Source: an uncultured candidate division Zixibacteria bacterium
GTDB lineage: Bacteria > Zixibacteria > MSB-5A5 > GN15 > FEB-12
Assembly: GCA_963806185.1 (NCBI GenBank)
Contig: CAWDXE010000007.1
Location: 32,001 to 96,000 of the forward strand
DNA: 64,000 bases
Direction: 5' to 3'
Positions within the stretch are counted from its first letter, which is position 1. Every line of letters starts with the position of its first letter. Positions 33,910-63,718 of this stretch are shown in pieces. A program made the position numbers and the translations under genes. Below the pieces are notes generated by a model. The model was not told where the DNA came from and did not search any database. It saw only the letters and a list, made by a program, of their open reading frames with translations.

Positions 33910-35122
33910 TCAGACCTTTACCGCCGTATGGTCAGTGAGGGCCGCCACCCCCGGGAGGGTCTTGCCCTCGAGGAATTCAAGTGACGCGCCGCCGCCGGTA
34001 GAGATGTGGGTCAACTTGTTTTCCAGTCCAGCCTGCGCAACGGCGGCCGCGGAGTCACCGCCTCCGACAACCGTAACGGCGCCTTTGGCCGTGAGATCTG
34101 CCAGCAATTTGGCGATGGCCAGGGTGCCGTTCGCAAACGGCTTGTTTTCGAAGACGCCCATCGGGCCGTTCCAGACGATGGTGCCGGCGTTGGACAGCTC
34201 TTTCGAAAACAGTTTGATCGTATCGGGGCCGATGTCGAGTCCCTTCATTCCGTCTGGAATCTTGTCGATAGGCACGACCTTCGTTTGGGCCGTGTCGGAA
34301 ATCTCCGACGCGATGACAGCATCGGTGGGGAAGAAGATCTTGACGTTGGCCCGCTTGGCGGCGTCAATCGTCTGTTTGGCGAGCGCGACCTTATCTTCTT
34401 CGAGCAGAGAATCGCCGATGGGGTAGCCCATCGCCTTTGAGAAGGTGAAGACCATGCCGCCGCCGATGAAGAGCATGTCGACTTTGCTCAGCAGGTTCTG
34501 GATGACGTCGATCTTGCCGGAGATCTTCGCACCGCCGAGAATGGCGGCAAAGGGGCGCTTGGGGTCGCTGACGGCTTTGCCCAGGTAACGGAGTTCCTTT
34601 TCCATAAGGAATCCGGCGACCGACTGACTGAAATATTGCGTCACGCCCTCCGTTGAAGCGTGGGCGCGATGGGCCGAGCCGAAAGCGTCGTTGACGTAAA
34701 TATCCGCCAGCGAAGCCAGTTTCTTGGCGAACTCCGGGTCGTTCTTTTCTTCTTGCGGATGGAAGCGGAGGTTCTCCAAAAGGATACAGTCGCCGTTTTT
34801 CATCTTGTCGACGACGTTGGCCGCTTCCGGGCCGATGCAGTCTTCAGCAAACTGCACCGGTTTTTTCGAGCAGCTCGCCGAGGCGCTTGGCAACCGGGCG
34901 AAGCGAAAACGACGGATCCGGTCCGCTCTTGGGGCGGCCCAGGTGCGAGCAGGCGATCACTTTGCCGCCGTCATTCATGATCTTCTGAATGGTCGGCAAT
35001 GCCTCGCGGATACGGCGATCGTCGGTGATCTGTCCGCTCTTGTCGAGCGGGACGTTGAAGTCGACCCGGACGAGCACTTTGCGGCCGCGAAAGTTGATAT
35101 CAGCAACAGTGACTTTGTTCAT
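33910..35122 (-). CDS. pgk: Phosphoglycerate kinase (apparent +1 frameshift near 34865, probably assembly error)
   Basis: RVDFNVP and SHLGRP in 34844..35122; [21 protein letters not shown] in 33910..34893; break at an A6 run. Confidence 0.93.
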
Positions 35123-42393: not shown

Positions 42394-42419
42394 GACAGAC
42401 ATCCTTTGGTTATTAAACA

Positions 42420-42513
42420 CGGAAGGGGTAGGAATCGAACCTACCAAGGACGATGCGATCGCCCCACGCTCGGCTTTGAAGGCCGGGACCGCCACCAGAC
42501 GGCATCCTCTTCC
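42420..42513 (-). tRNA. selC: tRNA-Sec (anticodon UCA)
   Basis: GGAAGAGGATGCCGTCTGGTGGCGGTCCCGGC-CTTCAAA-GCCGAG, long variable arm, GGTAGGTTCGATTCCTACCCCTTCCG; 94 nt. Confidence 0.92.
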
Positions 42514-42687
42514 GTCCGTAGTATATGGGGCCGATGCGCGGTGGGCAATTGGTTTCATGCCGGACGCGGGTTCGGCGGCGTCCTGTAACCTGCTGGCTAT
42601 TTGTGGGTTATAGAGATCGAAGATTGCCTCGATTTGGGTGTACTTTTCACTTTCGCGAAGGGGGAGAACGATATATCCTTACGGCCC

Positions 42688-47328: not shown

Positions 47329-47414
47329 GGAGAGGTGGCTGAGTGGTCGAAAGCGGCGGTCTCGAAAACCGTTATACCCTTCGGGTATCTAGGGTTCGAA
47401 TCCCTACCTCTCCG
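47329..47414 (+). tRNA. tRNA-Ser(CGA)
   Basis: GGAGAGGTGGCTGAGTGG...GCGGT-CT-CGA-AA-ACCGT, long variable arm, GGTTCGAATCCCTACCTCTCCG. Confidence 0.96.
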
Positions 47415-47716
47415 CATGTAACATATTGATATATAATTGGTTATGGCCATTTCTTGGCCGCCTGCCTTTTCGTACCCTCTCCGCTGTCAATATCTTTAAA
47501 GTTAGTCATTGTAGCAATGAGAACTACTCTAATTGCTGTTGATTCGATCCTCCATCCTTTTGCACTTCGAAGCTTTTAACAAACTATTGCACTGAATATC
47601 ACCAATCGAATAACGACACAAATGGCCCTCACGGCCTCCATCGATAAGACTTTGCCTGATTGTGATAAACTACTCTGATGCGACGGAACAACGGGTAAAT
47701 GCTCGCCAAAGATGTC

Positions 47717-47762
47717 TTGACACTCTGCCGATATGAATATATATTCGCCTAGGCGAATATAT
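47717..47762 (+). promoter_or_regulatory. sigma70 promoter with 24-bp perfect palindromic operator (ArsR-type)
   Basis: TTGACA-N17-TATATT; ATATATTCGCCTAGGCGAATATAT at 47739-47762. Confidence 0.8.
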
Positions 47763-47811
47763 GAATATGTTGCGGTCTGGTTTACGGACTGAGTTAATAG
47801 AGTGAGAGAGT

Positions 47812-48414
47812 TTGAAAATGAAAATGTCAGTGTATGATCCTGCTATGTGCTGCCCGACTGGTGTCTGTGGTCCGGCAGTCGATCCGAAACTGCCGCGCTT
47901 TGCAGCCGACCTCGAGTGGCTTGGAAATCAAGGCATAACCGTTGAACGGTTCAACCTGGCCCAGCAACCGGCGGCCTTCGCACAGAATCCGGTGGTAAAG
48001 GAAATGCTCGGTAAGCAGGGTAACGACTGCCTGCCGCTGATCTTGGTGGATGGCGCAGTCGTGTCCACGGTCAGTTATCCAACCCGAGAGAAACTCGCTG
48101 CCTTTGTCAATCTCTCGTATGCTCGGGTCCCCAGCATCTTCACCGATGCAGTTTCCGAATTGGTCGCCATTGGGGCCGCGATTGCCTCAAACTGCGAACC
48201 ATGTTTCCGCTTCCACTATGATAAGGCGCGGAAATTGGGTGTCTCTAAAGAGGATATGGCTCTGGCCGTCGCAATCGCTCAGGGCGTCAAAGAAACTCCG
48301 GCCAAGTCGATTCTTGAAATGGCTGATCGTTACCTCAAATCGAAAAGTACCGACGAGCCAATGACTCTTCCCATGGCAGAAGTCGCCTCCAAATCCAGCG
48401 GCAAATGCTGCTGA
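47812..48414 (+). CDS. arsD: Arsenite metallochaperone ArsD fused to a CMD/AhpD-like domain
   Basis: YDPAMCCPTGVCG...YPTR, then ELVAIGAAIASNCEPCFRFH; ends KCC. Confidence 0.88.
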   Translation: MKMKMSVYDPAMCCPTGVCGPAVDPKLPRFAADLEWLGNQGITVERFNLAQQPAAFAQNPVVKEMLGKQGNDCLPLILVDGAVVSTVSYPTREKLAAFVNLSYARVPSIFTDAVSELVAIGAAIASNCEPCFRFHYDKARKLGVSKEDMALAVAIAQGVKETPAKSILEMADRYLKSKSTDEPMTLPMAEVASKSSGKCC

Positions 48415-48427
48415 CCAAGGCTAGATT

Positions 48428-50227
48428 ATGTTGATACTAGATAACCCATCGAGGAATCTGTTCTTCACCGGCAAAGGGGGTGTGGGAAAGACATCGTTAG
48501 CCTGTGCCACGGCGGTGTCCCTTGCCGATCGCGGCAAGAGGGTGCTACTGGTAAGCACAGATCCCGCATCAAATCTCGATGAAGTCCTTAATGTGCACCT
48601 TTCCGCCGTCCCGACCGCGATACCGGACGCTTCCAACTTGTTCGCGCTCAATATCGATCCCGAAGCGGCTGCTCACGCCTATCGGGAGCGAATGGTCGGG
48701 CCGTATCGGGGCCTGCTTCCTGAAGCAGCCGTAGCCAGTATAGAAGAGCAGCTGTCTGGCGCCTGCACCACTGAGATTGCCGCGTTCGACGAATTCGCCA
48801 AACTACTGGGCGATCCCGCTGCGACGGCCGACTTCGACCACATCGTTTTCGATACCGCGCCGACCGGCCATACTCTGCGCTTACTGCAGTTGCCGGCAGC
48901 GTGGAGCGACTTCATTGAGTCGAGCGCGGGTGGGACCTCGTGCCTGGGTCCGCTATCCGGATTGCAGACGCAGCGTGAACTCTACGCGCAAACGGTCCGC
49001 GCATTGGCCGATCCAGCTATCACGACTCTGGTTCTCGTAAGCAGGCCGGAGCGAGCGGCTCTGCAGGAAGCGGACCGGACGCGACAGGAACTGTCGGCTG
49101 TCGGCGTTGGAAATCAGCACTTCATTCTCAATGGGACGTTCGTTGCCCAGGACCGCGAAGATCCAATTGCTTTGGCGCTTGAAGAACGTGGCAGACAAGC
49201 GGTGAACTCCATGCCGGCAGCTCTGGCACAACTTCCGCAGTCTCGAACACAGCTTCTTCCCTTTGGTCTGATTGGCGTACCTTCGTTACGGGCTCTGGTA
49301 AATGCGGACCCCCGAGAAACGACTCCAGCGGCACCTGCTCGACAAACTGCTGGAATCACTTTGCCGGCGCTTTCGACGCTGATTCGCCAATTGGAGACAA
49401 GCAAGCGCGGCGTGATAATGGTTATGGGCAAAGGGGGAGTAGGCAAGACCACTGTCGCGGCCGCTATTGCGGTAGCACTGGCCGATCATGGCCATACCGT
49501 TCACCTGACTACCACCGACCCGGCCGGACAGGTGCAGTCGGCACTGGCAAATAGTGTGGCGGGGCTGACCGTCAGCCGCATCGACCCCGTTGCCGAAACC
49601 GAGGCGTATCGTCTGGAAGTAATGCGCACTGCCGGTGGCAAGCTGGATGATCAGGGACTTCGTCTGTTAGAGGAAGAGCTACGCTCTCCCTGCACCGAAG
49701 AGATGGCGGTCTTTCGCGCGTTCGCGCAGAAGGTTGCCGAAGGGGCAAATGAATTTGTCGTGCTTGATACCGCTCCGACCGGTCACACGCTCCTGCTCCT
49801 GGATGCTACTGAGGCCTACCATCGGCAGGTCTCGCACACTATGAGTGATGTGCCGGATTCCGTTCGGCAGCTACTCCCGCGGCTGCGGGATGCGGAGTAC
49901 ACCAAGGTGCTCATCGTCACCTTGCCGGAAGCGACACCGGTCCATGAGGCCGCGCAACTCCAGAAGGATTTGAAACGAGCCGAAATCACGCCGCACGCCT
50001 GGGTGATCAACCAGTGTCTGACGCCGCATGCGGTCTCTGACCCCGTCTTGAAAACCAGGCAGGCGAGAGAAGGTCTGTTTATCGACGAGGTGACGCAGGT
50101 GCACAGCACAACGGCGTACATGATCCCATGGATGGAAGCAGGAGCAACTTTGGCAGACAGCCTGCGCAAAGTGGTGGCCGCCACGGCGGTAAGCGACAAA
50201 CCTATGGTCAGCAGACAAGGAAGTTAG
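48428..50227 (+). CDS. arsA: Arsenical pump-driving ATPase
   Basis: Two GKGGVGKT and two DTAPTGH motifs. Confidence 0.96.
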
Positions 50228-50232
50228 GAATT

Positions 50233-51306
50233 ATGGCGCAGCAGGAAGCAAAGCGATTGTCGTTTCTTGACCGCTACTTGACACTCTGGATTTTCCTGGG
50301 CATGGGAGCAGGCGTGGCACTGGGATGGCTGCTACCGCAGACCGAGCAGTTCATCAACCGCTTTCAGGTTGGCACGACCAATGTCCCGATCGCCATTGGT
50401 CTCATTCTGATGATGTATCCTCCGTTGGCGAAAGTGAAGTACGAGGAGCTTGGAGACGTATTCCGCAACACGAAAGTTCTCGGGCTCTCACTATTACAGA
50501 ATTGGGTGATCGGACCGATTCTCATGTTTTTCCTGGCGATTGCGTTTCTCTCGGGCTATCCCGAGTACATGGTCGGGTTGATCATGATCGGCCTGGCGCG
50601 CTGCATTGCCATGGTGATTGTCTGGAACGAATTGGCCAAGGGAGACACCGAGTATGCCGCTGGACTAGTGGCATTCAACTCGATTTTCCAGGTGCTCTTT
50701 TATTCAGTCTATGCCTGGGTGTTCATCACCGTGCTGCCGCCACTGTTCGGTCTCAGCGGCTCAGTAGTCGATGTCAGTATGAGGCAAATCGCCGAATCGG
50801 TATTCATTTATCTGGGGATTCCCTTTATCGCAGGTATGCTCACCCGCCTGATCGCGCTCAAGACCAAAGGACGGGAATGGTACGAGCAAAAGTTCATTCC
50901 GAAAATCAGTCCAATTACTTTGATCGCTCTGCTCTTTACAATCGTTGTGATGTTCAGTCTCAAAGGGAATCTGATCGTGCAAATCCCGCTTGACGTGGTG
51001 AGGATCGCGGTGCCACTCTTGATCTATTTTGTCGTCATGTTCCTGGTTAGTTTTTGGATGGGTCGCAAAGCGGGCGCAGACTACTCAAAAACGGCCACCC
51101 TGTCCTTCACGGCCGCCAGTAACAACTTCGAGCTGGCGATTGCTGTGGCCGTGGCGGTATTTGGCATTAACTCCGGCGCGGCCTTTGCGGCCGTTATTGG
51201 ACCGCTTGTCGAGGTGCCCGTTCTCATTGGATTGGTCAATGTGGCACTCTATTTCCAGCGAAAATACTTCGCACAACCGAACGCAGCTATGGAGGCGGCA
51301 CGATGA
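50233..51306 (+). CDS. acr3: ACR3-family arsenite efflux transporter
   Basis: [34 protein letters not shown]. Confidence 0.96.
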
Positions 51307-51641
51307 AGACTCACGAAGCGTTTAAGGGGCTGTCTGATCCGACGCGGCTTCGCATCGTCGCGCTTCTGCTGGAGCAGGAACTCTGCGTGTGTGACTTGAT
51401 GGCCGTCTTGCAATTGCCTCAATCAACAGTGTCCCGTCATATGATACGCTTGAAAGCCGCGGGGCTGGTCGCGGATCGACGCGCGGGCAAATGGGTGCAC
51501 TATTGCCTGCTTGAAAATTCCCTGGTAAGCGATCTGCGGCGCCTGCTGCAGAACCATTTGGCCGGCGCTGAGCCCTATAAGAAAGACGCAACTGCCTTGC
51601 GACGATATGTCCGAAACGGGAACTGTGCTGAAAACTCGTGA
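51303..51641 (+). CDS. arsR: ArsR/SmtB repressor (ELCVCDL type)
   Basis: [23 protein letters not shown]. Confidence 0.93.
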
Positions 51642-51654
51642 GAAGATCGAACCG

Positions 51655-52095
51655 ATGAACGACAACAAGACACTGCGTATTTTGGTGCTGTGCACCGGCA
51701 ATTCCTGTCGATCGCAGATCGCCGAAGGGTACTTTCGTCACTATGGAGGAGACAGAGTGGAAGTCTTCTCTGCCGGGCTTGAGCCAAAGGGAGTCAACCC
51801 ACGGGCGATTCAGGTGATGAAGGAAGTTGGCATTGATATATCGCAGCATGCTTCAGACCACCTGTCAAAGTACATGGGCCAGTCATTTGATTACGTCATT
51901 ACTGTCTGCGATAACGCGGCGGCCAATTGCCCGGTGTTTCCGGGAGCCGGAACGAAACTGCACTGGCCGTTTGAAGATCCCGCCGACGCGACTGGCACGG
52001 AAGAACAGGTGTTGGCGGTTTTCCGTCAAATACGTGACGAAATTGGTGCAAAGGTGAAGAACTGGTTGAGGACAACCCAAGAGCTGGCCCGATAG
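51655..52095 (+). CDS. arsC: Thioredoxin-coupled arsenate reductase (LMW-PTP fold)
   Basis: CTGNSCRSQ, TVCD....CP, HWPFEDP. Confidence 0.93.
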   Translation: MNDNKTLRILVLCTGNSCRSQIAEGYFRHYGGDRVEVFSAGLEPKGVNPRAIQVMKEVGIDISQHASDHLSKYMGQSFDYVITVCDNAAANCPVFPGAGTKLHWPFEDPADATGTEEQVLAVFRQIRDEIGAKVKNWLRTTQELAR

Positions 52096-52235
52096 CTTTT
52101 CGGGATATGGCTTCCTTGTCCGACCAAAGGCAATGCGCAGTTTGTGAGTAAATGAACAACAGAGGCGCGACGCCTGTTTATAAAATGGAGAAAGAAGTCG
52201 ATTACATGGGTCCACGATAGTAAGGTAACCACAGA

Positions 52236-52997
52236 ATGGAGGAACAGATGTTCAGGAAAATCAGCATTGTGACCGTTGCTCTGCTGCTTATGGCGGTAGC
52301 GGCCTTTGGCGCGGCACAACAACAACTGGAAGCGGCCGCAAAATCCGGCAACGTGGCCTTCGTCTTGGTGTATGACGCCACTGCTACCACTCTCGAGCAG
52401 GCGCGTCAGCTAACCGCGCAGGCGGTCGGCCGCGTGCCCGGATCGATAGCGATCGAAGTCAATCGCGGTGACGCCTCCGAAGCGGATTTTGTGAAGCGAT
52501 ATGGGCTGGCTACTGCTCCGGTACCGCTCATCTTAGTGAGCTCATCTGCCGGCGTCATCACCGGCGGTGTCATCGCCGCCCAGGCCAATGTTGACCAACT
52601 GGTGAAACTTGTACCATCACCCAAGAAAGCTGAAATCATCCAGGCGTTGTCGCAGGGAAATGCCGTGTTCATTACCGCGAGTCGGAAGAGCATGGCGACA
52701 GCAACAACTGTCAATAGCGCATGCGCCGCCGCGTGCCAACAGATGGCTGGGAAATCGGTACAAGTGACTGTTGATATGGATGATCCAAAAGAGGCCGGTT
52801 TCCTGACCGAGATGAAAGTCAATCTGCAATCAGCAGAACCGATCACGTTGGTAGCCAACGCTCAGGGGCAGATTGCCGGGATGTACACTGGGGCCATGCA
52901 GGTTACCGATCTCGTGACCGCCGCGACCAAGAAAGTTGGCGGCTGTTGCCCATCGACTGTTGCCAAACCGGACGCTTCATGCGCGCCTAAGAAGTAA
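52236..52997 (+). CDS. Secreted protein, two thioredoxin-like repeats, C-terminal CC
   Basis: Signal peptide; internal repeat; CAAAC and GGCCP...SCA. Confidence 0.7.
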   Translation: MEEQMFRKISIVTVALLLMAVAAFGAAQQQLEAAAKSGNVAFVLVYDATATTLEQARQLTAQAVGRVPGSIAIEVNRGDASEADFVKRYGLATAPVPLILVSSSAGVITGGVIAAQANVDQLVKLVPSPKKAEIIQALSQGNAVFITASRKSMATATTVNSACAAACQQMAGKSVQVTVDMDDPKEAGFLTEMKVNLQSAEPITLVANAQGQIAGMYTGAMQVTDLVTAATKKVGGCCPSTVAKPDASCAPKK

Positions 52998-53008
52998 GGA
53001 AAGCCAAA

Positions 53009-54229
53009 ATGAAGCTTCAAACTATACTCTGGCGCGAGCTATGGCTGCGAAAGTCGCAGCTCGTGTCGGCCTTACTTGGAATCACGCTTGGCATCGCCGT
53101 AATAGTTGGCATTCAATCGGTTTCAGCGGTTTCCGAGACAGCGGTCAAGGTAAGTCTCGACAACTTGGGGGCTAATATCCTGGTGCTGCCTCAAGCCGCG
53201 TCGGTTGATGACTACTATTCGTCTGATATTGACGCACCGACGTTTTCCGAAGACTATGTAGAACGACTTGCCACGTCGATGTTGCCGGGTGTCGACAACC
53301 TTTCCCCAAAGCTAACCCGGCGCGTGAAAGTTGGCGATGTGCCAATTATCCTCACTGGTATTCTACCAGCTAACGAGCTGGCTGCGAAACCGATTTGGCA
53401 AACGGCCGGTTTGGTCGGGGACGGTCTGAATGCAGCGTGTGATCCTGGCACCACGGCTAATCAGTCGTTTGGATATCAGGACGAACGGCTGCAACGCAAG
53501 GCGGTCGACTCGCTGGCGACCACTGATGTGTTGGTCGGTAGCAGCGCTGCGCAGCGGTTGAATCTGCGCGAGGGACAGACCGTGACAATTGAAGGTAAGA
53601 CTTTTACTGTTGCCCGCGTTATCCCAGAGACCGGCACCATTGACGACAGTCGCGTGTATGCCCACCTGCACACGGTCCAGCAGCTTTTGGGGACTGGCCG
53701 GCAGGTCAGCGCCATCGAGATCATGGGGTGCTGCTCAGCTATCTCGGATGGACTCCTTGGCAAGCTCCGCAATATCTTGCCCGATACGCGGATTACGACG
53801 ATCAATCAGATTGTCAGCACGCAAATCAGGACCAATCAGCTCATGAGCAAGATCTCCATGGTCTTTCTGGTGATCATCATCATTGTCGGAGCCATAACGA
53901 TTGGCAACTACATGTGGGCGAATGTCGAAGAGCGACGTCGCGAGATCGGCATTCTGATCACCATCGGTACGAAGCGTTCGGCCATCTACCGTCTCTTCTT
54001 GTCAAAAGCAGTGTTCCTGGGTGTAATTGGCGGCATTGGCGGTTTCATCGTTGGGACCGGGGCTGCAATGATTCTTGGACCGCAACTAGCTGGGCTACAT
54101 GTTTCGCCGATGCCACTTTATTTGCTGTTATCAGTGGTCGTAGCAGTGTCGATAGCATTGCTTGGCAGTATTCTTCCGGTTTACCGGGCAGCGAGATTTG
54201 ACCCAGCTGTCATCATGCAGGAGGTGTGA
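53009..54229 (+). CDS. MacB/FtsX-type ABC permease with periplasmic CC
   Basis: N-terminal TM, large periplasmic loop (IMGCCSA), ERRREIGIL, three C-terminal TMs. Confidence 0.9.
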   Translation: MKLQTILWRELWLRKSQLVSALLGITLGIAVIVGIQSVSAVSETAVKVSLDNLGANILVLPQAASVDDYYSSDIDAPTFSEDYVERLATSMLPGVDNLSPKLTRRVKVGDVPIILTGILPANELAAKPIWQTAGLVGDGLNAACDPGTTANQSFGYQDERLQRKAVDSLATTDVLVGSSAAQRLNLREGQTVTIEGKTFTVARVIPETGTIDDSRVYAHLHTVQQLLGTGRQVSAIEIMGCCSAISDGLLGKLRNILPDTRITTINQIVSTQIRTNQLMSKISMVFLVIIIIVGAITIGNYMWANVEERRREIGILITIGTKRSAIYRLFLSKAVFLGVIGGIGGFIVGTGAAMILGPQLAGLHVSPMPLYLLLSVVVAVSIALLGSILPVYRAARFDPAVIMQEV

Positions 54230-54898
54230 GTGATGTTTGCCATTCACAACTTGAGCAAGGTCTACACCTCTCAACACGGCACGGTTCGGGCACTGGATGA
54301 CATATCGCTGACCGTCGAGAAAGGCAGTTTTGTTGCCGTGACCGGCGGGTCCGGTTCGGGCAAGACGACCATGTTGTTGACGCTTGGCGGTCTCATTCGA
54401 CCGACGAGCGGAACGGTGTCGTTCTCCGGCAAGACCATTTACACTATGTCCGAGCCAGAGCTTGCCGAGTATCGCAATCGCAAGATTGGTTTTGTACTAC
54501 AGACATTCAATCTGATCCCATACCTTACAGCGTTGGAAAACGTCATGCTTCCGATGATATTTTCTTCTAACGGCAACGGCACCGCGCAAGCCCAGGCGGA
54601 AGCATTGCTGGAGAAAGTAGGCCTAAAAGATCGCGAAGAACATCTGCCGAGAGAGCTGTCCGTGGGGCAACAGCAGCGGGTGGCTATTGCGCGAGCTCTC
54701 GCCAATAGTCCGGAGGTAATTCTTGCTGACGAGCCAACGGGCAATCTGGATCCCAGTCTGTCACTCGAAGTGCTGAAGATTCTCAAACGGCTCAATGAAG
54801 AAGAGGGACGAACGGTTATCATGGTGACTCACAGCCCGGAAGCGGCGACATTCGGGAATCGCCAGGTTCGCCTAAAAGACGGTAAGGTACACGACTGA
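54230..54898 (+). CDS. LolD-type ABC ATPase
   Basis: GGSGSGKT, LSVGQQQR, ADEPTGNLD. Confidence 0.93.
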   Translation: MMFAIHNLSKVYTSQHGTVRALDDISLTVEKGSFVAVTGGSGSGKTTMLLTLGGLIRPTSGTVSFSGKTIYTMSEPELAEYRNRKIGFVLQTFNLIPYLTALENVMLPMIFSSNGNGTAQAQAEALLEKVGLKDREEHLPRELSVGQQQRVAIARALANSPEVILADEPTGNLDPSLSLEVLKILKRLNEEEGRTVIMVTHSPEAATFGNRQVRLKDGKVHD

Positions 54899-54899
54899 T

Positions 54900-55836
54900 A
54901 TGGGGAAACACGACAACAAGCGCGACCGGCACGGCAAAAAGCACTCCGGCAAGCGCAGCCACAGGCAATCGGTAGGTAGCGGGACCTCCCGCCATTGGGT
55001 GGGATGGGCAGCGCTCGCAGTTGTCCTGGTCGCCGGCGTAGGCATCGCATGGACGCTTTTCAAAGAAGAAAGTCCGAGAATTACTGCGTCTACTCCGGTG
55101 ACCAAGCTTCCGGAGTCAGTGTTACCAAAGAATCTGGAGACCAGGCCCGCTGAGTCGAAGCCAGTACCGCCACCGGCTGCGCCGCGTCTCGACATTCCGG
55201 AACCGGAATTTGATTTCGGCTTCGTGCCACAGAATGCGAAGATAAGTCACGTGTTCTGGCTACACTCGGCCGGCACCGACACACTCAAGATCATCAAGGT
55301 CAACCCCGGCTGAGGCTGCACCCAAGCGCCCTTGGAAAAGGACGCACTGGCTGTCGGCGACAGCACTACCCTTGAGATTATCTTCAGTACCGGAAGCTAC
55401 AGTAACCAGGTGAGCAAAGCGCCGTCGATATTGACCAACGAAGCGCAGGGGGCCAAAAACGTCACCATCAAGGCCAACATCGTCACAAAGCCGGACTCGA
55501 CTTATCCGATCGTCATTCAACCGCCCAAGATCGAATTTGCGAGCCGGCGACAGCACCGAAACGATGGAGTTTACGATCACGAACAAGTCGGACGGAGCGC
55601 TAATTCCGAGAATTGTTAGCGCACCGCGCCGTTTTGTCAGTATAAACTTGCCGCAGTCTATTCCGGCGGGCGAATCTACCATAGGGAGTGTTACACTCAA
55701 GAAGGCCGGACTTAAGACGGGTTTCGAGAAGTCAGTGACCGTCCAATTAAACGATCAGGCGAAGAGCCGCTTTACCATTCCGATCAAGCGATCGGTGGTT
55801 GGCCAAGCTGTTGTTGTTCCGGCCGGAGGGCATTGA
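54900..55836 (+). CDS. Membrane-anchored DUF1573-like Ig-fold protein, probable selenoprotein (UGA 55311-55313); apparent frameshift near 55540
   Basis: FDFGFV..HVFWL..GTDTLKIIKVNPG-UGA-GCT continues in frame into ORF 55332..55619; hairpin at 55326-55345. Confidence 0.75.
55322..55350 (+). promoter_or_regulatory. Putative bacterial SECIS element
   Basis: GCGCCCTT-GGAA-AAGGACGC with lower CCA/TGG pairs; G-starting loop 21 nt after the UGA. Confidence 0.65.
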
Positions 55837-55920
55837 GTTTCGTGACGGCCCAGGACACATAGCGCATTTGCATCATTTGAGGATAGTCGAACAGTCTACC
55901 CAAATAACAGGAGGATTCCA

Positions 55921-56379
55921 GTGAAACGATTTATTATAACGATGGCCCTTTTCCTTATGGCCATTACAATGGCCTGTAACAAATCATCGGAAACTCCTGC
56001 TCGCCAAGGTGCGGGCACTAATTCGGGCGCAGCACAGCCTGCCACTGCATCTCCCGATTTGTCCAAGGCACCACCTGTCACCGTGGCTAATCCTCCTGCG
56101 GCTACACCACAAACTCCCTCTGGGTATGCTACTGCTCCGGGCATGAATCCTCCGCACGGTCAACCGAGTCATCGCTGTGATATTCCCGTTGGGGCACCAC
56201 TTAATTCGCCGCCAGGTACACAGTCGACACCGGTCGTTCCTTCACAGCCCAATGCCACTGTCCAGACTCCGCCAACTACGACGGCTCCGGGCATGAATCC
56301 ACCGCATGGACAGCCGAATCATCGCTGTGATATTCCCGTAGGAGCGCCCCTCAGCTCAGCCCCTTCGCAGCCGAAGTAA
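55921..56379 (+). CDS. Pro/Thr-rich lipoprotein with duplicated NPPHGQPxHRCDIPVGAPL motif
   Basis: Lipobox TMAC; two near-identical 25-aa repeats. Confidence 0.8.
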   Translation: MKRFIITMALFLMAITMACNKSSETPARQGAGTNSGAAQPATASPDLSKAPPVTVANPPAATPQTPSGYATAPGMNPPHGQPSHRCDIPVGAPLNSPPGTQSTPVVPSQPNATVQTPPTTTAPGMNPPHGQPNHRCDIPVGAPLSSAPSQPK

Positions 56380-56444
56380 TTGTGCTGGCTACAGTTAAGA
56401 GGAGAGCGAAAATTCGTGAGAAATTCTGTTGATCTTGTTGGTAA

Positions 56445-56462
56445 TTTGGCGATATTACCAAG
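56445..56462 (+). promoter_or_regulatory. Putative ArsR operator
   Basis: TTTGG-N8-CCAAG; a second copy precedes arsP. Confidence 0.55.
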
Positions 56463-56491
56463 TATAAGGAAATAGCGAAGGAATTCAAAGT

Positions 56492-56818
56492 ATGGATAAT
56501 AAGACTAAAGCACATTTCGAGGCCAAGGCCAGAATTATTAAGGCGATGGCGCATCCGACGAGGCTCTTTATTGTGGATGAGCTGTCGCGAAAGGAACGGT
56601 GTGTATGCGATCTGACCGAAATGATCGGCGCGGATACATCGACCGTGTCCAAACATCTGTCCATTCTAAAAGCGGCCGGGATAGTGTCCGATGACAAGCG
56701 CGGTCTGCAGGTCTTCTACTCCCTGAAGGTGCCGTGCATCTTGAATTTCTTCGGATGTGTTTCGCAGGTGCAGAAGCTGTCGGCGAAGGAGCAGGTCGCG
56801 CTGGTCGTACGAAAGTAG
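56492..56818 (+). CDS. arsR: ArsR/SmtB repressor
   Basis: KAMAHPTRL, ERCVCDL, STVSKHL. Confidence 0.92.
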   Translation: MDNKTKAHFEAKARIIKAMAHPTRLFIVDELSRKERCVCDLTEMIGADTSTVSKHLSILKAAGIVSDDKRGLQVFYSLKVPCILNFFGCVSQVQKLSAKEQVALVVRK

Positions 56819-56834
56819 TTTTTTTGGGTCCATC

Positions 56835-56852
56835 TTTGGCTGTTTGGCCAAA
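56835..56852 (+). promoter_or_regulatory. Putative ArsR operator
   Basis: TTTGGC-TGTTTG-GCCAAA inverted repeat. Confidence 0.6.
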
Positions 56853-56878
56853 TAGACATATGAAAATAGGCGTTTGAT

Positions 56879-58180
56879 ATGAAATGGAAAGCAGAGTGGA
56901 AGCCCCTGACCCTAATAATTATCATATTCCTGGTCAGTTTCTATCTGCCGGTCGGCAAACCGCGTTTTGACAATGCGGTTACTGAATCGTTACAACTGGT
57001 AAAATGGTACGCGCAAGAGCATGTTCTACTCTGCCTGATACCGGCGTTCTTCATTGCCGGAGCGATTGGAGTCTTTGTCAGCCAGGCTTCAGTCATGCGC
57101 TACCTGGGAGCCAAAGCCAACAAGGTTCTCGCCTACGGTGTGGCGTCGATCTCTGGAACCATTCTGGCAGTATGCTCATGCACGGTGCTCCCCCTGTTTG
57201 CGGGTATCTATCGGATGGGCGCAGGGCTCGGCCCGGCCAGTGCCTTTCTCTACTCCGGACCGGCAATCAACGTGCTGGCCATATTTCTGACCGCGCGGAT
57301 TCTCGGGATCGAAATGGGTGTGGCCCGCGCAGTCGGCGCGGTCGTGTTCAGCGTAATCGTTGGGCTCATCATGCATTTCATCTACCGCAAAGAGGAAACG
57401 GCCAAAGCTGACGCTCAAATGGCTCTGCCCGATCCACCGCCGACGCGCCCGCTCTGGCAGACGATACTCTATTTTGCTTCAATGATAGCCATACTCGTCT
57501 TCGCCAACTGGGGCAAGTCAAGCGAACCAGTCGGCATCTGGAATGCAATTTACGAACTCAAATGGTATCTGACTGCCTTGTCAGCTGCGGCCCTCGGATT
57601 GATGCTGGCTACCTGGTTTAACGTCACCTGGTGGAAAATTGGCGCGGTCGCAGTTCCGGTCGCGATCCTAGGCCTGGTCTTTCGCGAATATCCGTTGATT
57701 CCGTTCGCTGCGGGGTTTGTAGGGCTCTCCATCATTACCAGCACCGATGACGGCGAGATGGGGAGCTGGTTCGAACAGACCTGGGGATTCGCCAAGCAGA
57801 TTCTGCCGCTACTTCTCTTTGGCGTTCTCGTCGCAGGACTTCTCTTGGGCAGGCCCGGACACGAGGGAATCATTCCTTCCGAGTGGATCAGTCGCTCGGT
57901 GGGCGGCAACTCACTCTGGGCGAATCTCTTTGCCTCGGTAGCAGGCGCCTTTATGTATTTCGCCACGTTGACAGAGATCCCGATTCTGCAAGGTCTCCTG
58001 GGGAGCGGCATGGGTAAGGGTCCGGCGTTGGCGCTTTTGCTGGCCGGACCGGCGCTTTCTCTTCCGAGCATGCTAGTACTGCGGAGCATTATGGGCCTTA
58101 GAAAGACGGCAGTGTTTGTGAGTATCGTGGTAGTCATGGCTACTATCACGGGAATGACGTACGGCTATTTCTTTGGATAG
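56879..58180 (+). CDS. arsP: ArsP/DUF318-family permease
   Basis: AVCSCTVLP, YSGPAIN, YFATLTE, AGPALSLP. Confidence 0.85.
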   Translation: MKWKAEWKPLTLIIIIFLVSFYLPVGKPRFDNAVTESLQLVKWYAQEHVLLCLIPAFFIAGAIGVFVSQASVMRYLGAKANKVLAYGVASISGTILAVCSCTVLPLFAGIYRMGAGLGPASAFLYSGPAINVLAIFLTARILGIEMGVARAVGAVVFSVIVGLIMHFIYRKEETAKADAQMALPDPPPTRPLWQTILYFASMIAILVFANWGKSSEPVGIWNAIYELKWYLTALSAAALGLMLATWFNVTWWKIGAVAVPVAILGLVFREYPLIPFAAGFVGLSIITSTDDGEMGSWFEQTWGFAKQILPLLLFGVLVAGLLLGRPGHEGIIPSEWISRSVGGNSLWANLFASVAGAFMYFATLTEIPILQGLLGSGMGKGPALALLLAGPALSLPSMLVLRSIMGLRKTAVFVSIVVVMATITGMTYGYFFG

Positions 58181-58190
58181 GAGATACACA

Positions 58191-58424
58191 ATGAAACTGA
58201 TTCAAATCCTAGGCACGGGCTGTCCCAAGTGCAAGAAGCTCGAAGAGCAGACGCGCGAAGCGGCCAAGGCCATCGGCCTTGAGTGTGAGATCCTCAAGGT
58301 GACCGATATCGAGGCGATCATGCGCATGGGCGTGATGATGACCCCGGGGCTGGCAATCGACGGGCAGGTTGTTCTGTCTGGGAAAGTACCGTCGGTTGAT
58401 GAACTCAAAAAGATTCTGGCCTGA
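58191..58424 (+). CDS. Small redox-active disulfide (thioredoxin-like) protein, ArsE-like position
   Basis: ILGTGCPKC, MTPGLAIDG. Confidence 0.88.
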   Translation: MKLIQILGTGCPKCKKLEEQTREAAKAIGLECEILKVTDIEAIMRMGVMMTPGLAIDGQVVLSGKVPSVDELKKILA

Positions 58425-58437
58425 AAGGGAACCTCAG

Positions 58438-58929
58438 ATGAATAAGGCAAAAGTCGCAGCGATCCTCGTAGGCATCGCAGCAATGTGGGTGGGTGGATAC
58501 CTGTTGGCCAATGCGGGTAACGGAACAGCAGATTCGCCGTCCACCGTTTCTCCTACCGCCGCCACGACCGATAGCGTTACCGCTATACCCCACAAAGTCG
58601 TTGCCTACTATTTCCACGGCAATGTCCGCTGTGTGACCTGTCGAAAGATCGAAGCATACACCGGCGAAGCGATTGACAGCGGTTTCGCGGCTGAACTCAA
58701 ATCCGGATTGCTTGAGTGGCATGCGATAAACACGGATTCATCGCAAAACGAGCATTATTTGGAGGACTACCAATTATTCACCAAGTCGGTAATTCTCTCA
58801 GATCTGCACCATGGTAAGCAGACCCGCTGGAAAAACCTCGACAAGATCTGGACGCTGACGGGAAACAAGTCCGACTTCATGAAATACATCCGGGATGAAG
58901 TCAGGATCATGCTGGATTCAACCAAGTAA
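58438..58929 (+). CDS. ArsF-family thioredoxin-like protein
   Basis: N-terminal TM; YYFHGNVRCVTCRKIE. Confidence 0.8.
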   Translation: MNKAKVAAILVGIAAMWVGGYLLANAGNGTADSPSTVSPTAATTDSVTAIPHKVVAYYFHGNVRCVTCRKIEAYTGEAIDSGFAAELKSGLLEWHAINTDSSQNEHYLEDYQLFTKSVILSDLHHGKQTRWKNLDKIWTLTGNKSDFMKYIRDEVRIMLDSTK

Positions 58930-58943
58930 AGGAACGACAGACA

Positions 58944-59414
58944 ATGACCCCTCGCAAAATCATCACGTTTGTTCTGCTCCTTCTGGTTGGAGTGAGTATT
59001 GTCGTCTTCGTGGCGCGACAAACAGGTCTTATTTCCGCGGACCTGGTATCAATCGGTGCATCAGCGGATGCGCCCCGACACAAGGTCATCGCCTATTATT
59101 TCCACGGCACGGTGCGGTGCGAAACCTGCCTGAATATCGAGCACTACACCGACGAAGCACTCAAGACCTACTTTGCCGATGACCTGGCCGATGGCCGCTT
59201 GGAATGGCGCGTGATCAACCGCGAAGTACCACCCAATGAACACTTTGTACAGGACTATGGACTGTATTCTCAGGCTCTGATCATCATCGACTCAATACCG
59301 GGACAGAAAGCCGAATACAAAAACCTCGAGGCCATGTGGGATTACGCCCACGACAAACCGGCGTTTATGGCATGGGTGCGTGGTGAAGTCGATCAGTACC
59401 TGAGGAGGCTGTAG
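58944..59414 (+). CDS. ArsF-family thioredoxin-like protein (paralogue)
   Basis: YYFHGTVRCETCLNIE. Confidence 0.8.
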   Translation: MTPRKIITFVLLLLVGVSIVVFVARQTGLISADLVSIGASADAPRHKVIAYYFHGTVRCETCLNIEHYTDEALKTYFADDLADGRLEWRVINREVPPNEHFVQDYGLYSQALIIIDSIPGQKAEYKNLEAMWDYAHDKPAFMAWVRGEVDQYLRRL

Positions 59415-60103
59415 TGGAGTCACTCTACGTTGCGGCTCTTTCGGCGATCTGGCTGGGCATACTGACTTCCATCAGCCCCTGTCCGCTCGCCACCAACATT
59501 GCGGCCGTTTCCTATATAGGCAAGCATGTGGCCAGTGGCCGGCATGCGGTGTGGTCCGGACTTCTCTATGTACTGGGCCGTCTCGTGACCTATGTGGCGG
59601 TGGGCGCGATCGTGACCGCTGGTGTTCTCTCCATTCCGGGCGTGTCGAATTTCCTGCAGAAGTACATGAACAGCTTGCTTGGCCCGGTCCTTATCCTGGT
59701 TGGACTCGTCTTGCTGAACTGGTTACCGATCAATATACCGGGCCTTACCCCCAGCGATAAAATGCAGGAACGCGCCTCACACGGGAGTCTTTGGGGTGCA
59801 TGTGCCCTTGGTGCCATCTTTGCGCTGTCGTTTTGCCCTGTGTCGGCGGCTCTGTTCTTCGGAAGTCTGATTCCGCTATCGGTTCAGCACCACTCATACT
59901 TACTCTTGCCATCGCTATACGGCTTCGGTACTGGATTGCCGGTGCTGGTGGTGGGCATTATGCTGGCCTATAGTGCTAAATCGGTGGGAAGGCTGTTTAC
60001 CGGTATCCAGCGCTTTGAGAGTTGGGTCCGCGTCATGACAGCGGTGATCTTTATTATCATCGGGATCTATATGATCCTGCGATACGTTTTTTACCTATTC
60101 TAA
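59414..60103 (+). CDS. ArsG-family (DsbD/CcdA-like) membrane protein
   Basis: SISPCPLATNIAA, ALSFCPVSAALFFG. Confidence 0.85.
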   Translation: MESLYVAALSAIWLGILTSISPCPLATNIAAVSYIGKHVASGRHAVWSGLLYVLGRLVTYVAVGAIVTAGVLSIPGVSNFLQKYMNSLLGPVLILVGLVLLNWLPINIPGLTPSDKMQERASHGSLWGACALGAIFALSFCPVSAALFFGSLIPLSVQHHSYLLLPSLYGFGTGLPVLVVGIMLAYSAKSVGRLFTGIQRFESWVRVMTAVIFIIIGIYMILRYVFYLF

Positions 60104-60172
60104 TCATGGGCCGGTGCCGGGCAAGAGCTCGACGCCGCCACTTACGCAATTCAAACGCATGCAAATGTTCGA

Positions 60173-60219
60173 TTGACACTCGTGCGAGAATCCATATATT
60201 TCGATATATGTCGAACTAT
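60173..60219 (+). promoter_or_regulatory. Promoter and operator of the hgc operon (probably leaderless arsR)
   Basis: TTGACA-N16-TATATT; TTCGA-N6-TCGAA (60200-60215) overlaps ATG 60208. Confidence 0.7.
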
Positions 60220-60573
60220 AGTACTAAGACCCTCAAGCGTGTTTCGCAACAGTTTGCCGCCCTGTCTAATCCCAACCGAGCCGCAATCTTTGCGCGACTG
60301 GCCGGTTGTTGTTGTGGAACGGCCGAGACCTGCAGACATGACGCCATGCGCACGTGCGTAGGAGATTTGGGAAAAGATCTCAGCATCGCCGCTTCGACGG
60401 TGTCTCACCATATCAAAGAGCTCCATCGGGCTGGTCTGATTAAGCTCGAACGATGTGGCAGAACGGTCAGATGTTGTGTTGATACAAAGACCGTGAAGGA
60501 AATGGCTGGATTTCTAGATGGCGCAACCGCAGCGGGACGACAAGCGCCGACGAACAAGCCGAAACGAGCCTGA
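60208..60573 (+). CDS. Cys-rich ArsR/SmtB regulator heading the hgcAB operon
   Basis: FAALSNPNR, GCCCG, CVGDLG, STVSHHIKEL. Confidence 0.88.
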   Translation: MSNYSTKTLKRVSQQFAALSNPNRAAIFARLAGCCCGTAETCRHDAMRTCVGDLGKDLSIAASTVSHHIKELHRAGLIKLERCGRTVRCCVDTKTVKEMAGFLDGATAAGRQAPTNKPKRA

Positions 60574-60589
60574 CAATCGGAGGATAGAC

Positions 60590-61186
60590 GTGGACGATAT
60601 CAACAAAGACAATCTACCCGGCTGCTGTGAGGGTGGCCAGTGCTGCTCACCAACGCCAGGTGGCGATACCCGCAAACCTGACCGTTGGAAATCTCTGATG
60701 TTCTCGGGAGTGATTTTGCTGGCATGTGCAGTGGCAGCATACTCTCTGTTCTGGCGAAGTCCGGATGCCGCGACCTCTGCCTGTTGCCCGCCGGGATCAG
60801 CGGCCGCGGTAGCTTGTGGCTCGTCGGCGGTCATTCCGGTCTTCGACCACTCCATGGCTCCGGCGGGTTTGTCGCTGTATCTCTTGTTATCGGCGACCGA
60901 TTCGCTTAGCCAGCAGCAGTTCGCGGTAATAAGTGAAGTTCGAGGGGCCGTGGAGTCAAAGGGGTCGCGGTTGGAACTTGAGACGTTGAGGCCCAGCGAC
61001 GGCTTCTTTCCGGCAATGGTCAGTGGTCATGGTATCACTTCCTTTCCGGCATTTCTGGTGTTCGGACAGCGCGACAGTTTGACCCTGAGTCTCACGAGTT
61101 TTCGAAGCGATACGATATTGAGCGTCTTTGTCCTGCCAGCTGAATCGTCGGAGGTGTCAACTACGTCCGAAACTAACCCTCAATAG
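60590..61186 (+). CDS. Single-TM hypothetical protein with three CC pairs
   Basis: GGAGG RBS plus GTG; GCCEGGQCC, TM, ACCP, SFPAF. Confidence 0.7.
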   Translation: MDDINKDNLPGCCEGGQCCSPTPGGDTRKPDRWKSLMFSGVILLACAVAAYSLFWRSPDAATSACCPPGSAAAVACGSSAVIPVFDHSMAPAGLSLYLLLSATDSLSQQQFAVISEVRGAVESKGSRLELETLRPSDGFFPAMVSGHGITSFPAFLVFGQRDSLTLSLTSFRSDTILSVFVLPAESSEVSTTSETNPQ

Positions 61187-61189
61187 CTG

Positions 61190-61895
61190 GTGAATGCGAT
61201 GGATTGGATAGAGCAAGTACTGCGATCCCCGGAATTCAGCATGGCTGCCCTGCCGGCGGCCCTCGTGCTGGGCCTGCTAACGGCAGTAACGTCGTGCTGC
61301 AATTTTGGCATCATCGCAGCTGTGGTAGGATATGCCGGAAGTCGCGACGAGCAGTATCATCGCCGCGACGCCGTCGTGACGGCCATTTCCTTCATGGTCG
61401 GCACGGTCGTGGCCCTCTCCGTGTTGGGGCTTCTCATCGGCCATGTCAGCGGACTAGCCGGAACCTCATTCAAACGCTACAGCACACTGATCATGGGGTT
61501 CGCTGTAATAATTGCCGGCCTGTGCCGCACTGAAGCTGCTGCCATTTCGATTGCCCTCCGTTAACTGGTCAAAAGTGAAGCGTCCCGGCGGTCGTTTCGG
61601 GTCGATTGTTTTCGGATTAGTCATCGGAACTGCGAGTATCGCGTGCACTGCAGCCTGCTGCGGCCCGCTGGTTCTCGTAGTCTTAGGCATGACCGCAATA
61701 GCGGGTCAGGCACTGCAGGGGGCAGTGATACTGGGGCTCTTTGCTATTGGCTACGGTCTTCCTCTGGCTGCGCTGATGCTTGGCGTTGGCCTCGGACGAA
61801 CCTCTGCGATTGCCCAGAAGTTGACTAAACCGATTCGCGTCGTTGCCGGATCGGGACTGCTTTTTGTGGGGTTCTGGTTACTCGCGACTATGTGA
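61190..61895 (+). CDS. CcdA/DsbD-like six-TM protein with CC motifs (apparent +1 frameshift near 61522)
   Basis: LLTAVTSCCN in TM1; ACTAACCGPLVLVVLG; LFAIGYGLP. Confidence 0.75.
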
Positions 61896-61907
61896 GGATG
61901 CGCGGAT

Positions 61908-63062
61908 ATGCTTGACACACCAGACCGTGGTTTGCCGCCCTGTTCGCCTGATTGCTGCTCGCCGGTGCAGATCACTACTCTTCAAAGCCATCCCCGGGTG
62001 GCGATACGCATGCCCATTCCCAAAGATCCGTGGGTCATCGGAACGGTTGCATCGCCATTCGGGGAAATCCCTCAGGTTGATGCGAAGTTGCAGTGGCTCG
62101 ATACTCTTGGCTCCTGGAAGGCTCGATGGGGCATCGGGCGTTCGAATTACAGCGTCCAGCCGCGCCTCTATGCCGTCGGCAATCCCGCCAAAACATCACC
62201 GGTGTTCGTTACGGCCAACTATAAGATGAGTTTTGACCGTCTCCGGTCGAACCTGGCTGATATCGACGGCTGGATCCTGGTTCTGGATACCAAGGGCATC
62301 AACGTATGGTGCGCGGCTGGTAAGGGCACCTTTGGCACCGAGGAACTTATCCGTCGAGTTGAGGTAGAGGGTCTGAAGCAGATTGTGTCTCATCGCCGCC
62401 TGATTCTCCCGCAGTTGGGTGCCACCGGCGTCAGCGCGCACCACACGCGCGAGCGCAGCGGTTTCCACGTTTTCTACGGCCCCGTCCGGGCGAAGGATAT
62501 TCCAGAGTTCATGCAAGCCAGGATGAAGGCGACCGAAGCCATGCGGAAAATCACCTTTACGCTGGCCGAACGGGCAGTCCTGATCCCGATCGAGTTTGTA
62601 AACAATCTTAAATACGCGCTCTTCGCAGCTGCGTGCCTGCTGCTACTCACCGGCGTTGGGTTGGATATCTACTCTCTGGATCGAGTGAAGGATTTCGGCA
62701 TCACCAATGCCGGCTTGGTACTTCTGTCAACTTTGTGCGGTGCATTGTTGCCCGCGCTGCTTTTGCCGTGGTTACCGGGGCGGGCGTTTTCGTTCAAGGG
62801 AGCTGCTGCCGGGCTACTGCCAGCAATCGGCATCGCCGCTCTGATGTGGTGGCATCCGGAGACTTTTCGCAATCGGGTCAGCGGCACTAGCTGGATGTTC
62901 ATTTTCCCAGCGGTGTCGAGCTTTCTAGGGATGAACTTCACGGGTAGTTCGACTTATACGTCGTTGTCAGGCGTCAAGAAAGAGATGCGCGTTGCCTTGC
63001 CAGCACAGATTTCAGTCGCTGTGTGCGGACTCGTATTGTGGCTAGTAGGATTGTTCATATGA
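61908..63062 (+). CDS. hgcA: Mercury methylation corrinoid protein HgcA
   Basis: Cap-helix GINVWCAAGKGTFG, TANYKMSFD, LPQLGATG, C-terminal TMs ending NFTGSSTYTSLSGV. Confidence 0.97.
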   Translation: MLDTPDRGLPPCSPDCCSPVQITTLQSHPRVAIRMPIPKDPWVIGTVASPFGEIPQVDAKLQWLDTLGSWKARWGIGRSNYSVQPRLYAVGNPAKTSPVFVTANYKMSFDRLRSNLADIDGWILVLDTKGINVWCAAGKGTFGTEELIRRVEVEGLKQIVSHRRLILPQLGATGVSAHHTRERSGFHVFYGPVRAKDIPEFMQARMKATEAMRKITFTLAERAVLIPIEFVNNLKYALFAAACLLLLTGVGLDIYSLDRVKDFGITNAGLVLLSTLCGALLPALLLPWLPGRAFSFKGAAAGLLPAIGIAALMWWHPETFRNRVSGTSWMFIFPAVSSFLGMNFTGSSTYTSLSGVKKEMRVALPAQISVAVCGLVLWLVGLFI

Positions 63063-63355
63063 CGACCAAGTATCTCTCGGGCGTTGTAACGCTCGAGCTT
63101 AATTCGGATAAGTGCAATGGCTGCGGTATGTGCCTACAGGTTTGTCCGCACGCCGTCTTTGCGCTCGAGAATAAGCGGGCGAAGATTGTCGATCTCGATG
63201 CATGTATGGAATGTGGGGCTTGTGCTTTGAATTGCCCAGAAGGCGCGATTAGCGTTCGGTCCGGAGTTGGATGTGCAGCGGGCATTTTGACCGGAGCTTT
63301 ACGAGGAACTGAACCCACTTGCGGTTGCGGAGATGACTCGGGGGGTTGCTGCTAA
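63059..63355 (+). CDS. hgcB: Mercury methylation ferredoxin HgcB
   Basis: CNGCGMCLQVCP, CMECGACALNCP, GVGCA, terminal CC; ATGA overlap with hgcA. Confidence 0.96.
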   Translation: MTTKYLSGVVTLELNSDKCNGCGMCLQVCPHAVFALENKRAKIVDLDACMECGACALNCPEGAISVRSGVGCAAGILTGALRGTEPTCGCGDDSGGCC

Positions 63356-63518
63356 CATATGGCCTCAAGTGTGCACCGTAGTATTTCAACAGACATGTTG
63401 TATGATGTTGAAGTCACTTGTATAGCGGTTCAGCTAAAGTTGCATATCACAAAGCTATTTGCCAGAGTTGGGGCCGGAGCTTGCGAATATCTGTTGAATG
63501 CCTCGAAGCTCTTAAAAC

Positions 63519-63718
63519 GGAATGCGCAATCCATGATCGGATTGTGGCGTTTGGGACCAATTGGGGACCGTGGGACTTCAAAACAGTCAATACGCACTAC
63601 GAATCATTCAAAACTATTTGATGACGCAATCAATTGGTGGAACTCACCTTACGGCGTAATTGACACAATGACAATCATTTATGGGAAACATACAGTACGA
63701 ATCCCTACCTCTCCGCAT
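63519..63718 (+). mobile_element. Island right-end module and attR
   Basis: GGGACCAATTGGGGACC arm-type repeat at 63553; 21-bp tRNA-Ser 3' duplication at 63698; homologous to 5237-5436. Confidence 0.85.

Follow-up and report, generated by a model that had tools for sequence, protein, structure and literature searches.

An ORF that opens with the ATG at position 54900 on the forward strand of the window (the whole stretch of 64,000 nucleotides analysed here) halts at VNPG-TGA (55311-55313), and the same frame then goes on with GGC TGC ACC and stays open for 101 codons. Two questions arise from this locus: whether the TGA is a stop or a selenocysteine (Sec) codon and, if Sec is inserted, what the protein might do among the arsenic genes that surround it. 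The original prediction had taken the locus for a hidden selenoprotein on a mobile arsenic/mercury island, and the interrupted frame is as it described. Its reckoning that about 100 open codons all belong to the same domain stands as to length but not as to content, since only ~76 of the 101 are real protein owing to a frameshift at 55541-55543.

The TGA falls within a DUF1573 domain. The PF07610 match runs across it (aa 100-194; 61.3 bits against a cut-off of 26.1, E 9e-17), and the codon, predicted Sec138, takes the place of the first Cys of the CGC motif. This placement had been proposed beforehand and is borne out by the alignment of homologues, in which 62 distinct DUF1573 copies from 33 loci have either TGA (30) or TGC/TGT (32) at the column. 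Past the TGA, the frame is open for 161-190 codons in 28 of the 29 other TGA copies, the remaining one running off its contig. A true stop, a sequencing error or a pseudogene would fit with the indel errors of the assembly and with the second break in this gene, but the same TGA occurs in more than 100 distinct copies, including a 77%-identical orthologue (L250) and the host's own core paralogue, and downstream synonymous sites are constrained in TGA copies only; such a reading is hardly credible. The conserved pairing of TGA with Cys codons, the sel genes and the RNA constraint specific to TGA copies strongly support the selenoprotein reading, and the UGA is very likely decoded as Sec, with probable insertion by SelB.

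The host genome has selA, selB, selD (itself TGA-bearing) and one tRNA-Sec (selC). The latter lies at 42419-42514 on the reverse strand, ~12.8 kb from the TGA and thus close to the 13 kb given originally; as it lies outside the att repeats described below, a linkage of the DUF1573 gene to the nearby tRNA-Sec was rejected. Co-occurrence of the family with sel genes holds for the host, which has the full set, and in general for the phylum, where selA is present in 147 of 151 genomes, but it breaks down in two TGA-bearing genomes (G110 and G046, two of the four selA-less ones) that gave no selA and no selB or tRNA-Sec over the cut-off. Both have SelD with TGA, so assembly gaps are the likely cause of the missing genes. 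The SECIS layout of SelD itself varies within the class (L227-L246, L011): in many SelD genes, a perfectly paired distal stem carries a G-GUN loop ~33 nt downstream of the UGA (about half of 17 in the class), and others have a proximal hairpin, as does the SelD of the window genome. In two families, SelD domains without TGA were also observed inside open frames of 710-800 aa (L218-L225); they are probably fusions, and some of these genomes carry a TGA-bearing SelD as well.

The RNA downstream of the UGA presents two hairpins. The proximal one (55326-55345, forward strand) had been described with its GGAA loop at 21 nt. The hairpin is real, with the loop 20 nt after the UGA, and GCG-C-CCTT-GGAA-AAGG-A-CGC folds at -9.0 kcal/mol, which agrees with the bSECISearch consensus in loop size, G position, spacing and energy (a loop of 3-9 nt with G at one of its first two positions, a spacing of 16-37 nt and an MFE of at most -7.5; PMC13188914). 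Taken alone, it is not unusual when compared to shuffles (z of -1.2 to -1.65 for three short stretches, +0.96 for 100 nt), and its support is therefore comparative. This comparison used 121 of 124 TGA copies, after removal of duplicates and of one copy that was off-register, and 59 of 72 Cys copies, the other 13 being off-register. The proximal hairpin passes the bSECIS model in 64 of the 121 and in none of the 59, and pair 18-35 of its stem covaries, with 13 two-sided changes in 30 sequences.

The distal hairpin (55350-55364, forward strand; GCUGUC-GGC-GACAGC), which the original prediction did not list, is the more conserved of the two, and its loop, 42 nt after the UGA, is a candidate for SelB binding. 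The motif GCUG(U/C)C-GGN-GACAG is kept in 116 of 116 TGA copies encoding A(V/A)GDS, compared with three of eight Cys copies having the same residues; GCT makes up just 14% of Ala codons in eight window genes, yet the motif keeps GCU. Pairing averaged over the 121 TGA copies places the proximal stem at columns 15-20/33-38 and the distal stem at 39-45/49-55, both being absent in the Cys copies. RNAalifold, run on 30 copies, recovered the distal hairpin with no covariation, because its columns are invariant. A C-A mismatch in 14 copies and a terminal mismatch in three imply that sequence may matter besides pairing. In a separate lineage of 14 TGA copies, a wholly different stem sequence sits in the same place, again around GGN. 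The distal hairpin differs from the published consensus in that 42 nt lies outside the 16-37 nt spacing, so that none of the 121 copies passes (PMC13188914); the distal loop may still be the SelB site, and ~13% of BSepDB entries are reported to be without a canonical SECIS element (PMC13326102). Elsewhere, one TGC copy still has both hairpins (L037; G105:C3, near 399700), which suggests a recent Sec-to-Cys change. When hairpins with a GGY loop were sought genome-wide behind open-frame TGAs, both DUF1573 copies of the host were recovered among 213 hits that were mostly noise, and no further selenoprotein was identified; the sequencing runs listed as holding this sequence include no RNA dataset.

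Whether the family was already catalogued as Sec-containing had been left open. It is, as a prediction: 'DUF1573 domain-containing protein, PF07610, motif UGC' is tabulated as a predicted selenoprotein (PMC9312934, Table 1; PMC13188914), and the source given for the row in PMC9312934 is also that of the Olavius 'OS_HP' families. Table 2 of Zhang & Gladyshev (2007) gives OS_HP2 with two sequences, in a text whose passages name neither DUF1573 nor UGC (PMC1976440); the grounds for equating OS_HP2 with the DUF1573 row are the reference common to both and an NCBIfam match. The catalogue passages give no function for the family. A hidden DUF1573 selenoprotein is thus not new in itself, having been catalogued since 2007, and the present copy is a further predicted member, sharing with the 'UGC'/OS_HP2 entries the Pfam domain, Sec at the first CGC Cys, Cys homologues and a downstream hairpin (PMC1976440, PMC9312934, PMC13188914). 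It differs from OS_HP2, which was described from a deltaproteobacterial symbiont, in belonging to a Zixibacteria-type lineage, in having two Ig domains and a membrane anchor, and in its place within an ars ABC module. Against NF041425 ('OS_HP2 family (seleno)protein'), it matches profile positions 1-95 of 98 and scores 52.7 bits, and the intact orthologue L180 scores 72.2, both family-like but below the curated cut-off of 100.

DUF1573 homologues are present in 148 of 151 genomes of the phylum. At C7:587461 the host carries another TGA copy, flanked on both sides by a CGC paralogue; this core tandem cluster of three genes, CGC-UGC-CGC, spans G000:C7:586000-588400 (L054). In this phylum the family is usually found in such clusters (47 of 68 TGA loci of a pattern scan), and ars or module neighbours were found at three of the 68, or at two of 32 with 5-kb flanks. 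The scan covered 28 of the 64 parts of the genome collection and gave at least 124 stretches, mostly Zixiibacteriota or 'uncultured Ignavibacteria' records; its 123 loci comprise 107 with a counted TGA copy, three overlapping duplicates and 13 with no DUF1573 match, treated as chance. Being selected for TGA and overlapping the set of loci with handles, it yields no frequency, and related genomes in all these counts are not independent samples.

The gene under study lies on a 16.3-kb island at a tRNA-Ser, which has att-like repeats and holds ars genes, an ABC module and hgcAB, all on the forward strand. The left repeat (47394-47417) lies at the 3' end of tRNA-Ser(cga) (47329-47415), and the right one (63695-63718), identical to it in 23 of 24 nt, is 16,301 nt away. 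Composition is only mildly atypical (tetranucleotide distance in the 73rd-88th percentile, GC 54-56%). The mobile island originally claimed finds support in the repeats and in a patchy distribution, but not in an integrase: none was found among the scanned island ORFs, and the two PF00589 matches of the genome lie elsewhere. A strong sigma-70-like site (47717-47745) precedes arsD(+CMD domain)-arsA-acr3-arsR-arsC (47812-52095), and arsR-arsP-arsE-like-arsF-arsF-arsG follow at 56492-60103, both sets being assigned by profile matches. Further on are hgcA and hgcB, the mercury methylation genes, in Cys forms (61908-63355; NF040863 449 bits and NF040864 128 bits, both over cut-off).

Several features of the island deserve mention in their own right. 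A complete hgcAB pair beside ars genes and three ArsR-like genes on a tRNA-Ser island (47394-63718) makes this Zixibacteria-type genome a candidate for lateral movement of mercury-methylation genes; at L184, hgcAB is also found, 5-6 kb from the ABC module, and a link between ArsR and hgcAB has been reported (bioRxiv 10.1101/2022.10.17.512643). ArsD (47812-48414) is fused to a CMD/AhpD-like domain with CxxC, ends in a C-terminal CC and has weak similarity to ArsM/AhpD selenoprotein models. An exported Pro-rich protein with no family match (55921-56379), which contains two 71-nt repeats encoding MNPPHGQPxHRCDIPVGAPL, also turns up beside the module at several loci. Two further islands in tandem are suggested some 26 kb beyond the window (G000:C7:121911-160307), where the 3' end of tRNA-Ser(tga) recurs at C7:141843 and C7:160287. 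tRNAs occur within four of 40 module loci, so a general tRNA-island pattern is not seen, and a plasmid search with the 253-aa partner protein of the module gave no match.

The ABC module directly precedes the DUF1573 gene. It starts with this exported 253-aa partner (52236-52997), with CxxxC and a C-terminal CC that is kept in 34 of 34 aligned sequences; the partner has no Pfam or NCBIfam match, and its thioredoxin-like label comes from an Atlas lead only. Next is a MacB/LolC-type permease identified by profile matches (53009-54229), with three invariant Cys, one single and two in a GCC motif (GCC in 42 of 42; C144, C240 and C241 invariant in 27 sequences), and then an ABC ATPase (54230-54898) that ends one base before the start codon of the selenoprotein. 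The partner was found in 48 of 257 phylum genomes, and the permease tree does not follow host families, which is consistent with lateral movement. Partner loci from 40 of 45 further genomes, together with two loci preselected by DUF1573 match, make up a set of 42. Nearly all of them have an ArsR gene and most have acr3, arsC, arsP or arsF/G; the arsenic link suspected originally is supported by this recurring ArsR-linked module. A UGC gene is present in 21 of the 40 partner-fetched loci (23 of 42 with the preselected two), and a CGC gene in none; in these 23 loci it lies directly after the ATPase (18), after acr3 (1), just upstream of the partner (3) or ~8 kb away (1). The other 19 loci are without a DUF1573 gene, although five of them end too early to tell, and the gene is therefore dispensable.

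Two types occupy the slot after the ATPase: one has three domains and scores above the OS_HP2 cut-off (L178 and L191, at 106 bits on NF041425), and the other has two domains and derives from core copies. The window gene is of the second type, within a seven-member ars-linked clade (98/96 support, from only 102 columns). Between the window and L178, permease identity is 95% but the slot genes are only 33% identical in the Sec domain, which indicates that the slot gene was swapped with U-G-C retained. An AU test did not reject a single clade of slot holders (p 0.25), so repeated independent recruitment is not proven. The slot of the same module is occupied by a CGC DUF1573 gene in two low-GC metagenome loci, one of which (L262) continues with arsC-arsM-acr3-arsD. 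Two other phyla contributed 20 loci, where partner and permease mostly occur with no ars genes; just one of these has a DUF1573 gene.

These counts bear on the idea that the selenoprotein is a passenger in ars clusters, keeping a general envelope role of the core family and taking no part in arsenic chemistry. The near-universal homologues, mostly in tandem core clusters, the core TGA copy that the host already has, and the lack of the gene in about a third of the informative module loci would all be expected of a passenger. We consider it quite unlikely, given the fixed slot in 18 of 42 loci, the dedicated anchor, the refilling of the slot by unlike lineages and its occupation by a Cys form in distant contigs. 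A selenol serving as a mercury ligand tied to hgcAB is very improbable: the affinity of Se for Hg is very high (bioRxiv 10.1101/2022.07.06.499078), and hgcAB shares the island and also lies near the module in L184, but it adjoins only one of the 42 module loci, the island ORFs that were scanned include no mer gene, and HgcA and HgcB are Cys forms here. The mercury part of the original prediction is weak; mercury binding is poorly supported and arsenic binding plausible.

The DUF1573 gene (54900-55836) would encode a predicted membrane-anchored, two-domain DUF1573 selenoprotein of the ASH/PapD-like Ig type, ~311 aa long on the assumption that one extra base stems from the assembly. A basic N-terminus (10 K/R, 2 D/E) precedes a predicted transmembrane helix (aa 36-54; 55005-55061; Kyte-Doolittle 19-mer maximum 2.17), a layout shared by most other slot holders, and a Pro-rich linker joins it to two Ig-like domains. 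The export proposed originally is thus likely, but by an uncleaved N-terminal anchor rather than a cleaved signal, and from this anchor the protein is likely to be outward-facing and periplasmic. Domain 1 (55197-55481) carries the U-G-C motif. The second Ig-like domain (55546-55836), with no Cys and in a shifted frame, has a weak PF07610 match and 78% identity to the second domain of L250. The single extra base at 55541-55543 is missing from four contigs of three runs, one of them otherwise identical over 151 nt (low depth), and from L250, which encodes 315 aa in a single frame (77% domain identity). In the same assembly, PGK is split and two EF-Tu-like selB-profile matches have short open frames. 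The frameshift is very likely an assembly error, and the true protein likely has two Ig-like domains. Split or extended genes were also noted at 33910-35122, 60022-60573 and 61190-61895 (PGK, ArsR-like and DsbD-like), as if indel errors were frequent in this assembly.

An AlphaFold model of the orthologue L180, built on a 58-sequence alignment (pLDDT 95; a single-sequence model with pLDDT 42 was discarded), is predicted to be essentially all beta. Among solved structures, the closest folds are those of ASH/PapD-like Ig domains (Hydin/CFAP, CEP192; Porphyromonas 2qsv), which at 7-18% identity to the model speak for its fold and not for its function; a sequence search of solved structures gave no match with the single domain and only weak Ig-like matches with a profile. 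The main rival reading has to be weighed here, namely that the protein is a periplasmic redox helper whose U-G-C pair would form and break a selenylsulfide, so maintaining the Cys pairs of the module, and ArsE/ArsF-like proteins, in a reduced or properly paired state, with no metalloid binding. Thioredoxin-like and DsbD-like genes abound on the island, characterised selenoproteins are mostly redox enzymes (PMC9312934), and the CxC pair never varies among 58 core and module sequences, regardless of their context. Nevertheless, the modelled fold is an Ig-like beta-sandwich and not the thioredoxin fold with a UxxC/CxxU motif, and the spacing is CxC instead of the usual CxxC, which makes a redox helper somewhat unlikely in our opinion.

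The repeated place of the gene beside a Cys-rich transporter in arsenic clusters suggests a role in arsenic handling outside the cell membrane. We think that the best explanation as a whole, to which we give a probability of roughly one half, is that the outward-facing UGC protein would be an accessory selenol-thiol ligand subunit of the arsenic-cluster ABC module, with its Sec decoded. Binding of As(III) by clustered thiols is established for ArsR and ArsD. In this reading, release of ArsR by As(III) would switch the module genes on, SelB would read the hairpins and insert Sec, the U-G-C pair would bind trivalent arsenicals in the periplasm, and the arsenical might be handed to, or exchanged with, the partner, itself rich in Cys, and the permease at its three invariant Cys. 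That the tethered U-G-C binds a soft metalloid and serves the Cys-rich ABC module under ArsR control seems possible, if slightly short of an even bet. A dedicated arsenic role is weakened by the fact that most family copies are not near ars genes and that many modules do without the gene.

The nearest published analogy is the SAO system (Haft & Gwadz; bioRxiv 10.1101/2022.07.06.499078), which has a different transporter class. Both have an ABC transporter neighbourhood in which Sec and Cys-Cys motifs occur, lie close to an ArsP-family exporter and have proposed heavy-atom ligands. SAO differs in having a MetI-like importer permease and Sec substrate-binding proteins, whereas the present permease is of MacB/LolC type and has Cys only; no SaoP model was matched in the search for SaoP/SaoB-type subunits, and the permease matches MacB/LolCE models only. 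The literature searched, with BSepDB covered in passages, gave no description of the ars ABC module or of the two-hairpin layout, which is a weak absence. The full combination, in which an ArsR-controlled MacB-type module has a tethered Ig-fold selenol-thiol arsenical binder, the slot demands Sec in Sec-competent hosts while accepting unlike DUF1573 lineages, with Cys elsewhere, and a two-hairpin SECIS offers SelB a GGN loop 42 nt downstream, is doubtful as a joint claim and is put forward tentatively.

The gene is near-universal in the phylum and yet is truncated by standard gene callers. The two-hairpin signal provides a concrete candidate for the non-canonical class of bacterial SECIS elements that reviews describe (PMC13326102). 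For a family whose catalogue entries come with no function, the tie found here between it and a defined ABC module, rich in Cys and part of arsenic clusters, is a lead on what it may do, and since a natural Cys version of the module exists, it could be tested in a tractable host.
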